NCBI GenBank assembly: GCA_949358305.1
Contig: OX442314.1
Coordinates: forward strand, 8,680,001 to 8,744,000
Length of the DNA: 64,000 nucleotides
Reading direction: 5' to 3'
DNA from: Strigamia acuminata
Taxonomy: Eukaryota
Positions 6,343-10,168 of the stretch are shown here, piece by piece. Each line of letters begins with the position of its first letter. The first letter of the stretch is position 1. The position numbers and the translations under genes are program-made. The notes beneath the pieces were generated by a model, which saw only the letters and a list, made by a program, of their open reading frames with translations, had not been told where the DNA came from and did no database searches.

Positions 6343-9300
6343 TTATTTCTCGATTCGGAAAACTGACTCCGGAGTTGGAGCTTCGCTTTCGGAAACCGAA
6401 AATTTCGGCAGATGACGGGTTGGTCCTGAGGTGGCGCCATTGTTGACATGGAGCCAGACTTCTTCGATGAACTTGGTCCTCGGGAATACTCGGTCATAGT
6501 CGATGTCATATTTTTCGCGGGATCCAGTGGGTGGCCTCCGCACTGCTACTAATCGTTGATGCTGAATTATACGCTTTGGCTCTCTAACAGCATTCTCGAG
6601 CCATTTCAATGCCTCATGGCATAACGTCACATTGTAAATTAGCAGAGTTCGAGCGTATTCGGGGAACTTCAGACCTGGATATAGTTGTTTTATCTTCCTA
6701 AAGTCTTGGTTGGGATTCTTCTTCGTTTCTTTCGCAGCCGCTGAACTCTTGGACGACACCGTCTTTTGCGAACTTCCACTAGCTCTATTTAAGGGCTCAT
6801 TCCCTTCAACATCAAACATTTCCGTATCTGTGGTCAATTTCAACTCGACATCGGATTCTGGAGCTATTGCTTTTTTGGTTGGCTGGTGGCTTGGCGTGGC
6901 AGTCATAAAGACTGTGGGCGCTGCCCCTTCTGCTGTTGGTGGGTCAGCTACTTGCTGCGCACACGTCCCAAATTTTCGTTGCAGTTGCAAGCTCTGTCTT
7001 CTCAGAATCCATTCACCCCGTAATCTTAGCATGCACTGCCCCGATGTTTCTCCCGTTTTAAAAACTTCTCGTTCCAATTGGGCTCGAATGACCGGTGGGT
7101 CCCCCAATACTGTTTTCCAGCTATCGAGCAGTTCGGGCGGGATTCCCATTGCTGACGTCCACAGGAAACTCGTGGCAATCAATGAAGCTTCGACGGCTTG
7201 AAAAACTCCCGGAAATAAAAGTCTAATTAGCGCCACTGACATTTGCACTTCGAACCAAGCTAGCCATTCTTTGGTTCGCAGCTCGGTGGGTTGGGCGACG
7301 AAGGCTTGAGCGCATCTCCGTCGTTCATTTAGTGATTCTGCTAATTGGGCTTGCTGGTACTCGTCCATCGTTGGGGTCAGAAGTCCTTGGTTACATAACG
7401 GAAATTTCAAATACATCGTCCACAGCTGTCGATAGTATTTATCGAAATCTTCAGCTAATTTGACTGACGGGTCTATTGTGTACATCACAGTGGCTACTGA
7501 TGGAATTGGCAGTGATAAGTCCGTTTGGGGAATTGGTTCCGTAATTGGTTGCAAGTGAGGGTGAGGCACTCCCAAGGCGGCACTCGGCGTAGCTTTTGGT
7601 TGTACCTTCCTTGGATCTCGCATCCTCGGGCGCAGTATTCGCGATGGTCCTTTTTTTCGCGCTGGTTCCCTTGCCCTTTTCTCCCATGCCTGGGCTAATG
7701 CCTCGTCAAGAGTCGGCAACTCTCGGCAGCTGGAAATCTCTGGTGATGACACTCGCGGCGTTGGCGTTGGTGGGCACGTGGTTGGAGTCCAGGTAATAGG
7801 AGTGTGTGTACTCCGTGGTGGTGTCTTTGGCGCCTGGTACTGTCTTGGAGGGGTGGCCGGCGGTGGTTTCTGCACTTCCTGCTGCCTTGGCGGGGTAGTA
7901 GGTGGTGTTCTTGGCCCTCTTTTGCTGGTTTCACCTCCTTGTCGTTTTTCAGTGTCGTGTGTGACTGTTGCTGTTGGCTCCCGTTCCTCCAAAATGTGGA
8001 CGGTTGTTTCAGCCAATTGCTGTTCTTCCACTGAATCGGGTGTCGGTGAGCGTTGACACTCATCCATTACCACGTATTGATCTAACTCCATCTCGTGTGC
8101 CGTCAAATACTCATCCGACGAACTTCTACGAATTCGCACCTGTAGTGTCTCATTTTTATCCGCTGAAATTGTCACCTTCCTTGCTGGGCGCATTTCTGAA
8201 TAGCGGTGTGACGACCGTGGGCGTTTCTTTGCCCGCTCAATTCGATTTCCTTCGGCTGACGGACGCTTTTCTGTTGCTCGGTGGTGTCTAGGTACGTATT
8301 CTCGATCTGCCGTTTCGTGTCGCCTCGAATTCTTTTTCGGACTCATTTCCGAGCTTCGTTGATGCCTCTTTACTTCCCTCTCTGAATCTTTGTCTGTTCG
8401 ACTTGATCTTTTCTCCATTTGAGGTTGACGAGAGAAATATTGTTGTCTCGGACTCTTACTCCTTCGTCGGGGACTTTCTTTTCTATCTCGACTTTGACAT
8501 CTTCCCGTTTGGTGTTTTTCTAGTGTCGAATTTCGGTTCTCTTTTTGACCTTTTCTCGGACTTATTTCCGCACTTCTGTATTCTTTTCGCCTAGATCGGA
8601 ATTCCCTGGTATAATATTTTGGGCTGATTCTTCGAGGAGGAGTTGTCCTTTTGGGTCTCTCACTCCTGGAGTAACGGAGGGCTCCTCTTGATCTGGCTTC
8701 TCTTCCTCGCCGTTTGGTTTCCTCTTCTTCCGTTCTGACACATTTCAGAAACTCCACTTCCTCGTGTAATTCCTTCACCGTTTCTTCTGCCGCCTGTTCT
8801 AATGCTGCCTCCCACTCGTCCTGCTCCTGCCGCTGTTGTTTGGCGTAGACGAGCGGTCCAAAATCCTCGGCTTGCGGCTCACCTTCTAAATTGAGCGGTG
8901 TGATGTTTTGGCCAATGAGTCCCGTCATATGGAGTTGGTGCATCTTGTACTGACTCTTTATGAAGTATGGCGGCTCTTTATCTAACTCCGGGGAAGGCAA
9001 TAAGGCCTGAGCTTCGAGGTAAGCTGTTTTCTCCTCCATATATTTAGCCGCTACTTCTGGTGCTCCGGCTTTCAGCTTTGCCATCACCTCTTCCACGAAT
9101 TTAAATTTGTTTGTCGCCGGGTTCTTGTATATTTTGAGATCGGCTGCTTCCTCCTCTTCTATCGGATATTCATCCCCTATCATCTGGTTCCAAATTGGGC
9201 CATGCGTGTCCTCTGTAATTGGGATCTGTCTCAAAACTTCGTGGAAACATGTTTTGAATCCTTTGAATAGTCGTTTTGTCGTTCCCCAAAATCTTTGGAT

Positions 9301-9441
9301 TGCTGTTGTGAAGGCTTTGCGTGCTTGAAATGCTGTATAACCTCTCTTAACGAATTCTCTCTTGTATCTGTATGGAATTCTCCCTCGATGGATATTCCTT
9401 GGCAATCTAGCCGCTCTCGAAATTCTTCCCCACGACGCCAT
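6343..9441 (-). CDS. LTR-element ORF2, 1032 aa, unknown function (env position, but no evident signal peptide or TM anchor)
   Basis: Uninterrupted ORF with GCCATGG start context. It has a basic N-terminus, an Arg/Ser-rich central region, a Pro/Thr-rich region and probably helical C-terminal domains. No family recognised. Confidence 0.85.
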   Translation of the reverse strand: MASWGRISRAARLPRNIHRGRIPYRYKREFVKRGYTAFQARKAFTTAIQRFWGTTKRLFKGFKTCFHEVLRQIPITEDTHGPIWNQMIGDEYPIEEEEAADLKIYKNPATNKFKFVEEVMAKLKAGAPEVAAKYMEEKTAYLEAQALLPSPELDKEPPYFIKSQYKMHQLHMTGLIGQNITPLNLEGEPQAEDFGPLVYAKQQRQEQDEWEAALEQAAEETVKELHEEVEFLKCVRTEEEETKRRGREARSRGALRYSRSERPKRTTPPRRISPKYYTREFRSRRKEYRSAEISPRKGQKENRNSTLEKHQTGRCQSRDRKESPRRRSKSPRQQYFSRQPQMEKRSSRTDKDSEREVKRHQRSSEMSPKKNSRRHETADREYVPRHHRATEKRPSAEGNRIERAKKRPRSSHRYSEMRPARKVTISADKNETLQVRIRRSSSDEYLTAHEMELDQYVVMDECQRSPTPDSVEEQQLAETTVHILEEREPTATVTHDTEKRQGGETSKRGPRTPPTTPPRQQEVQKPPPATPPRQYQAPKTPPRSTHTPITWTPTTCPPTPTPRVSSPEISSCRELPTLDEALAQAWEKRAREPARKKGPSRILRPRMRDPRKVQPKATPSAALGVPHPHLQPITEPIPQTDLSLPIPSVATVMYTIDPSVKLAEDFDKYYRQLWTMYLKFPLCNQGLLTPTMDEYQQAQLAESLNERRRCAQAFVAQPTELRTKEWLAWFEVQMSVALIRLLFPGVFQAVEASLIATSFLWTSAMGIPPELLDSWKTVLGDPPVIRAQLEREVFKTGETSGQCMLRLRGEWILRRQSLQLQRKFGTCAQQVADPPTAEGAAPTVFMTATPSHQPTKKAIAPESDVELKLTTDTEMFDVEGNEPLNRASGSSQKTVSSKSSAAAKETKKNPNQDFRKIKQLYPGLKFPEYARTLLIYNVTLCHEALKWLENAVREPKRIIQHQRLVAVRRPPTGSREKYDIDYDRVFPRTKFIEEVWLHVNNGATSGPTRHLPKFSVSESEAPTPESVFRIEK

Positions 9442-10168
9442 GGCTTCTTGGGTCTATGTAAAACATTATTAAATTCAATTTTATCTTTCTCTGATGTGTG
9501 TGTTATTTTTTGCGTATTTATTTCGATTTTGAGTTTTATTATTCTAAATTTTCTCACAAGATGGCGCTCCGTGCTAATTTTTTGTGATAGGAGTCCTTCT
9601 TATGCCACTCTTTTGCAGTTTTGGCGAATAAGTTGGCATTTTTGTCATATAAAACTAATTATCTAGGCAATAATTAATTTTACTTTGATTTATTTCGAGA
9701 CATTAGACTTCTTTTCTTTATTTCCCATCGGTAATTTCACCGAACTTGTCACGTAGTAACGACATATTTCGTTCCGTCTTTTCCACAAATAATTTACGCG
9801 CTTTCAAATAACACACCCGATGAGAGAAAATACTTCCTTATTCATTTATATTTTCGACACATTTCGATTTTACTACCTCACTGTGGTCCCGTCTTTTCGG
9901 TGGTGGTGATTTCCGTGGTTCGAACATCTTGAGATGAACTTCCGCTTAATCGGACCCTTCCTTCACTTGACTGCACACTTTTCTTCGTTTTTTGGTCGTT
10001 TTCCCTCTTATTCTTACTGACAGTTGTTGTTAAAATCCGGGATGACTTTCCTAAACTTGTTATTGTTTTGATGTCAAGTTAACAAGTGAGATTCGTCTCG
10101 ACCAATCATGTTCGAGCTGCGACGTTGTCCACTTCCGGACTCCCGAGTGACGTCGCTACCTTCTATTT

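Follow-up and report, generated by a model that had tools for sequence, protein, structure and literature searches.

The 64,000-nucleotide window analysed here (Strigamia acuminata, assembly GCA_949358305.1, contig OX442314.1, positions 8,680,001 to 8,744,000) contains, on its minus strand, a long terminal repeat (LTR) retrotransposon with two long open reading frames (ORFs). The second of these, ORF2 (P0001; 6343..9441), occupies the env position and is a real, intact gene. It encodes an orphan accessory protein of 1032 amino acids, and both ORF1 and ORF2 are under purifying selection. ORF2 is likely, at a rough probability of one half, to encode an accessory protein that is nuclear and associated with RNA, and that would be translated from a subgenomic RNA predicted to be spliced. 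The system is of interest since a large orphan protein is selected in a young, polymorphic, multi-copy family of a barely studied host group, and chiefly since this selection acts in a copy that lacks its own replication enzymes.

The selection on ORF2 is seen in three public runs filed under one species label (X1, X2 and X3; contig sets, DNA-type). Contigs from these runs were aligned on ORF2 at 80% likeness, and the substitutions were classified by their effect on the codon. The 41 differences tested comprise the 40 best-supported of 500 and one from a wider alignment at 90-100%. Synonymous changes account for 33 of them, against 13.5 expected for the same changes placed randomly in the ORF, and 0 of 20000 permutations reach 33. 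Codon position 3 carries 30 of the 41 differences, and none of the 41 creates a stop. The small indels listed in ORF2 are only a +6 and a low-depth -1. The commonest deletion variant is a 51-nt skip, which is in frame; further skips, of 108 and 675 nt, keep the frame as well, and those of 149 and 1684 nt, from low-depth contigs, are out of frame. Among the best 12 of 22 entries, indels are absent from ORF2, while four of 1-2 nt lie in the non-coding spacer between ORF1 and ORF2 (9442..10168; 727 nt, GC 0.37). One lineage (loose end at 9408) is about 84% identical, with 85 differences over 532 aligned bases, and retains, as judged by eye, the N-terminal ASW(G/D)RISR. ORF1 shows the same tendency: of its 10 listed differences, 7 are synonymous, where 2.9 would be expected (P=0.008). 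A preliminary description of this DNA had named poor conservation among copies as a result that would speak against its proposal of an RNA-binding accessory protein; ORF2 is instead conserved among them.

This record also bears on the idea that ORF2 is a functionless chance ORF or a decaying relic. The lack of a homologue and of a confident fold, together with much low-complexity sequence, would agree with such an origin. However, the chance frequency of stops is about 0.06 per codon from base composition, and a frame of 1032 codons is therefore far beyond chance. The excess of synonymous differences points the same way, and the common indel variants keep the frame while the upstream spacer gathers frameshifting ones. 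A functionless ORF2 is thus scarcely credible.

The ORF2 protein is composed of alternating basic, acidic and linker regions. Residues 1-60 (9262..9441) form an Arg-rich basic N-terminus with a net charge of +16 and an isoelectric point of 12, containing 17 Lys/Arg (12 Arg and 5 Lys) against a single Asp/Glu. An acidic region follows at residues 61-240, with helices predicted through residue 144 and at 198-253. The Arg/Ser-rich basic region at residues 241-420 (8182..8721) has 43 Arg, 24 Ser and a net charge of +37. It consists of 37% Arg plus Ser, contains 15 RS/SR dipeptides and a KRPR motif resembling a nuclear localisation signal (NLS) at 406, and has neither helix nor strand in a low-confidence model. 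A second NLS-like motif, KRAR, occurs at 588. Residues 501-650 (7492..7941) form a Pro/Thr-rich linker with 34 Pro and 18 Thr. The RRRSKSPR and RRISPK motifs and the Pro/Thr region of the preliminary description are present in the translation. Low-confidence models predict a helical domain at residues 651-835 (6937..7491), which holds the most hydrophobic stretch of the protein, and a further helical region at 911-1000. Basic, disordered sequence makes up about 400 residues in total. There are 11 Cys, all scattered, and four NxS/T sites.

ORF2 has no detectable relative in the sequence collections searched. Pfam gives no family at E<=1. Nothing is found by a word-indexed search of 5.8 billion protein clusters (lengths 567-1806 only), by an exhaustive phmmer (HMMER) search over 1.84 billion representative proteins, in the ESM Atlas with either the whole protein or residues 640-1032, or in JGI metagenome and IMG/VR contigs. 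Comparison with PDB sequences yields chance-level matches only (E>=0.9). The tblastn search against the rest of the window and BLASTP against ORF1 are likewise empty. A clear match to a known Env or to a captured host gene, the other finding that had been named as contrary to the initial proposal, is therefore absent from these collections.

The features tested support the view that ORF2 is not an envelope protein, as had been suggested at the outset. Its N-terminus is basic and has no hydrophobic window nearby, so no signal peptide is indicated. A transmembrane anchor near the C-terminus is absent by Kyte-Doolittle (KD) analysis, in which the last 270 residues stay below 1.4. No similarity to Env or fusion families is found by Pfam, the protein searches or PDB. 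Compared with errantivirus and retrovirus Env proteins, for instance that of Drosophila gypsy, ORF2 lacks the signal peptide, membrane anchor, fusion-peptide arrangement and family match. An atypical envelope or cell-to-cell transfer factor, working through the hydrophobic helices at 724-765, is very unlikely. The env position would fit such a role, as would a borderline hydrophobic stretch whose highest 19-residue KD mean is 1.55 (732-750), and some insect retrotransposons are reported to be transmitted by non-Env membrane proteins such as sORF2 (PMC11952523). Yet this mean falls just short of the customary 1.6, and windows that start outside 732-742 all stay below 1.4. Sites of the R-x-K/R-R type occur only in the basic disordered regions, the four NxS/T sites are few for an envelope protein, and a long basic, disordered protein of 1032 residues is unlike the short transmembrane sORF2.

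The reading of ORF2 as a nuclear RNA-associated protein is proposed because of its Arg-rich N-terminus, its Arg/Ser-rich region and the NLS-like KRPR, together with the precedent of CERV from Cer1, a Ty3/gypsy element of Caenorhabditis elegans. CERV is described as an ORF in the env slot without homologues outside nematodes, with a spliced mRNA and a nuclear product (PMC10309623). According to the same source, the unspliced genomic RNA depends on CERV for its export, and the protein has an NLS-like basic motif and 517 amino acids encoded by five exons, the first ones shared with gag (PMC10309623). By mode of action it would be the nearest precedent. Like ORF2, it is a non-Env ORF in the env position without outside homologues. 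The two also differ. ORF2 has 1032 amino acids, its own ATG and an Arg/Ser-rich region, and has no Cys-rich zinc-finger-like part; its host is a myriapod and not a nematode, and its splicing and localisation are predicted from sequence only. ORF2 has no matches in either protein search that could indicate homology to CERV, the presence of CERV in those libraries not being established.

Under the nuclear RNA-associated reading, ORF2 would be retained because it helps the element's own RNA. Its mRNA would be spliced or internally started, and the protein would act through the Arg-rich N-terminus and the Arg/Ser-rich region. Possible roles comprise export of unspliced RNA, control of splicing, and RNA chaperoning or packaging. 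The action would resemble that of Cer1 CERV or of retroviral Rev-type proteins, without sequence kinship, and the copy itself would be moved in trans by a full-length relative.

The expression signals of ORF2 are compatible with a separate mRNA. The ATG (9441-9439) stands in a GCCATGG context and the stop is TAA (6345-6343). Upstream of the ATG, the stop-to-stop frame extends for just four codons, back to the TAG that contains the acceptor AG. The spacer upstream contains stops in all frames and several ATGs, and with its length of 727 nt it would place ORF2 out of reach of scanning from the genomic RNA, so that a spliced or internally started mRNA would be needed. The acceptor-like string TTTAATAATGTTTTACATAG/ACCCAAGAAGCCATGG reported in the preliminary description is confirmed; its AG occupies 9455-9454 and precedes the ATG by 12 nt. 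The motif TTTAATAATGTTTTACATAG (9454..9475, minus strand) was scored with a home-made splice-site weight matrix; among AG sites it comes first of the 52 that lie in the spacer and 18th of the 795 in the whole element. Many ATGs have an AG within 20 nt, and the acceptor-like site is a weak argument for splicing. A spliced upstream exon could add no coding sequence, or could be fused in frame as in Cer1 CERV. The donor-like sites in ORF1 are in some cases in frame with the acceptor and in others not, as would be expected by chance. The spacer also contains TATAAA at 9850-9845 with TCAT about 29 nt downstream; by chance alone, about one in two comparable spacers would contain such a hexamer.

Several points weigh against a nuclear RNA-associated role. 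The functional reading is drawn from amino-acid composition, and Arg/Ser- and Pro-rich disorder is frequent also in proteins of other roles. Pfam finds no RNA-binding domain in ORF2, either RNA recognition motif (RRM) or other, and no nuclear export signal pattern occurs in the protein. Both structure models are uninformative, single-sequence AlphaFold2 giving a predicted local distance difference test score of 39 for the whole protein and 43 for residues 641-835. The splice and the transcript are predictions from the motif alone. In the leader and LTR, the same weight matrix finds no strong splice donor, the donor-like sites there being moderate. The hydrophobic stretch 732-765 lies just below the membrane-span threshold and may allow membrane association. 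With regard to selection, the tested differences are the best-supported ones and not a random sample, and the lineage that retains ASW(G/D)RISR also has a 1-nt deletion at 9225.

The element that carries ORF2 occupies 5336-14415. Its LTRs have TG...CA ends and measure 963 bp (3' LTR, 5336..6298) and 1016 bp (5' LTR, 13400..14415), and they are flanked by a 4-bp target-site duplication that reads AACT on the element strand (5332..5335 on the 3' side, 14416..14419 on the 5' side). A primer-binding-site-like sequence, TGGGGGCCCGTTATTTGA (13380..13397), begins 2 nt after the 5' LTR; it is called from its position and TGG start only, the tRNA scan of the window giving 0 for comparison. A 16-nt polypurine tract (PPT), CTAAAAAGAGGGGAGG (6299..6314), abuts the 3' LTR, and its part AAAAAGAGGGGAGG (6312-6299) lies 30 nt past the ORF2 stop. 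The LTRs with TG...CA ends, the target-site duplication, and a primer-binding site and PPT adjoining the LTRs are the defining parts of an LTR retrotransposon, and all are present. Placement in the Ty3/gypsy superfamily is tentative because the RT (reverse transcriptase) on which it would be based is absent from the element. The 7.1-kb interior consists of two 3.1-kb ORFs and the spacer. ORF2 lies between ORF1 (P0002; 10169..13276, 1035 amino acids) and the PPT, all on the minus strand, in agreement with the arrangement first described.

A second, exact copy of the 16-nt PPT CTAAAAAGAGGGGAGG is found at 10308..10323 (minus strand), within the end of ORF1 and about 4 kb upstream of the 3' LTR. 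The ORF2 segment is thus flanked by two exact PPT copies. The internal copy may be either a central PPT or an ancestral PPT that stayed in place when the ORF2 segment was inserted behind pol. Central PPTs are described for Ty1, HIV and Arabidopsis EVADE as a feature of active elements (PMC7197481).

An acquired segment would also be expected if ORF2 were a captured cellular gene or gene fragment, for example of an SR-related protein, with or without benefit to the element. The position between two PPTs fits such an event, as does the divergence of contigs in X1, X2 and X3 just upstream of the 3' PPT (loose end at 6318). In its composition, the Arg/Ser-rich region is similar to splicing-related proteins of the host, and LTR elements are documented to have captured additional ORFs (PMC5408684; PMC6673714). 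Capture is nevertheless distinctly unlikely. No homologue is present among the 1.84 billion representatives or the 5.8 billion clusters, and the latter collection includes proteins of Strigamia maritima, as a neighbouring AAR2 gene matched one of them. The GC content and the GC content at third codon positions (GC3) of ORF2 are 0.49 and 0.45, nearer those of ORF1 (0.44 and 0.40) than those of the AAR2 exons (0.32-0.35), though the GC3 of a RhoGAP exon in the window is also 0.45. Purifying selection over many copies fits use by the element.

ORF1 comprises a region in the gag position with an RGG-rich start, an aspartic protease, the C-terminal SH3-like part of an integrase and an acidic, Ser-rich tail. 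As read from the translation, the RGG-rich start is followed by a long charged stretch that is probably a coiled coil. The protease, at residues 555-642 (11351..11614; PF13975 E=1.5e-4, PF00077 E=0.025), is retropepsin-like and has a DSGA motif. The Tf2-1-type integrase SH3-like domain at residues 757-818 (10823..11008) is a weak match (PF24626 E=0.085), and all three Pfam matches are below the Pfam cut-offs. Pfam finds no RT, RNase H or integrase core in ORF1, and the 7.1-kb interior has no space for them. The pol order protease-RT-RNase H-integrase is accordingly not found in the element; the protease is joined straight to the integrase C-terminal part. ORF1 has no CCHC zinc knuckle, and no relatives in the word-indexed search of clustered proteins or in PDB. 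ORF1 ends in PPDYL (PPxY-type, residues 1031-1034) and ORF2 contains LYPGL (YPxL-type, 921-924); both resemble late-budding motifs and are short enough to occur by chance.

Because RT, RNase H and the integrase core are missing from ORF1, the copy is, as judged from its coding content, a non-autonomous, internally deleted derivative. Elements of this kind are mobilised in trans. Like other non-autonomous deleted LTR elements, the copy has intact LTRs, a primer-binding-site-like sequence and a PPT, lacks RT and integrase, and is recently inserted. It differs from typical ones in that it keeps two long ORFs under purifying selection and is not non-coding. Its recent insertion and the missing RT and integrase core suggest that it is presumably mobilised in trans by a full-length relative. 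The non-autonomous state also gives the conservation of ORF2 a different meaning.

The same state has been weighed in favour of a particle-associated structural or nucleic-acid-chaperone protein, a second Gag-like component that supplies the basic RNA binding missing from ORF1 and is not a nuclear regulator. Selection on both ORF1 and ORF2 in a non-autonomous copy is expected if both proteins preferentially serve their own coding RNA. The absence of a CCHC zinc knuckle from ORF1 and the two strongly basic regions of ORF2 (net +16 and +37) agree with this, as do the late-domain-like YPGL of ORF2 and terminal PPDY of ORF1, which by chance occur about once per ten proteins of this size. However, Pfam gives no capsid or nucleocapsid family match, and ORF1 could bind RNA with its own RGG-rich N-terminus. 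Composition does not separate a chaperone from a nuclear protein, and the chaperone is considered unlikely.

A more far-reaching form of the nuclear RNA-associated reading is doubtful. In this form, a myriapod retrotransposon family would have arrived independently at a Rev/CERV-like factor. This large, Arg-rich protein would resemble RS-domain proteins and be translated from a spliced subgenomic RNA. The factor would bias host splicing or export toward unspliced element RNA, and would be so strongly cis-acting that RT-less derivatives keep it. If so, the minimal self-encoded set would consist of Gag-protease and ORF2, with RT and integrase borrowable. The ORF2 system offers a natural test of which element proteins need to be supplied in cis.

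The insertion is very young and polymorphic, and is absent from some chromosomes under the same species label. The aligned bases of the 5' and 3' LTRs match throughout (712/712 and 254/254), and the LTRs differ solely by one indel of about 50 bp. The extra bases, at 14112-14161 in the 5' LTR, have no counterpart in the 3' LTR and show a short CCA repeat at their borders. The empty target site is represented by a joint of 5331 to 14416, at which 4 letters fit both sides, in one contig each of X1 and X2; no such joint occurs in X3. The near-identical LTRs and the empty-site allele therefore point to a recent insertion.

Contig pieces at 90-100% identity on 5200-14550 number 1278 in X1, 498 in X2, 325 in X3 and 0 in X6. 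With this depth in X1, X2 and X3, the element family therefore comprises many diverged copies. A loose end at 11184 (two contigs, X2) is a possible point where other copies continue differently, and further loose ends in family contigs occur at 10101, 10234, 10392 and 11617/11625. Such scattered ends indicate that the family consists of a mosaic of variant forms.

LTR retrotransposons often carry an extra ORF where env would be expected, and what it does is almost never known. Additional ORFs (aORFs, ORF3) are described in plants (PMC7264820) and bdelloid rotifers (PMC5408684). ORF2 is a new, unrelated example of this non-Env class: its host group is another, its sequence is unrelated, and it is retained despite the loss of RT and the integrase core. 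In some insect elements, a short membrane protein, sORF2, is reported to replace Env (PMC11952523). Such small fusogens, like those of the fusion-associated small transmembrane (FAST) type, are short and have one transmembrane segment, whereas ORF2 has 1032 residues and no segment that reaches the threshold. SR/RS-domain splicing proteins share an Arg/Ser-rich region with ORF2, in which no accompanying RRM or other domain was found. In a limited literature search, Cer1 CERV is the sole non-Env animal case with a demonstrated function. ORF2 is a good candidate for a second, independent retroelement-encoded RNA-handling factor; should it prove to be a passenger or a simple low-complexity protein, it would be an ordinary case.

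The surroundings of the element contain several repeats. Outside the LTRs, the element is bracketed by two copies of a 190-bp repeat with 94% identity (4548-4733 and 14860-15052). Short palindromes are found by the insertion at 4916-4953 and 14426-14467, one of them immediately adjacent to the 5' LTR. It is possible that the element was inserted within, or between copies of, some other small repeat. Further away, 880-2094 and 2917-4208 are collinear direct repeats with 86-96% identity and a spacing of about 2.04-2.12 kb; they represent a tandem duplication of about 2.1 kb, and the DNA there is AT-rich. No RNA gene was detected in the window by Rfam or tRNA scans.

Other frames in the window belong to the host or are orphans. 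On the minus strand, 29923-31299 holds an open frame of 458 amino acids, rich in Ser, Thr, Pro and Lys, in a GC island of 0.53 against about 0.35 around it. It has no Pfam match, its opposite strand also holds long open frames, and the frame may represent a further orphan gene or a repeat. An exon-sized frame at 34014-34352 (minus strand) contains a RhoGAP domain (E=4.8e-13) and belongs to a host gene. The host AAR2 splicing-factor gene lies at 20096-20986 on the plus strand, as two adjoining same-frame pieces with one stop codon between them (20555-20557). By this gene, the host is probably a centipede related to Strigamia: the second piece (20558-20986) is 82% identical to AAR2 of Strigamia maritima, and the next match is at 61%.

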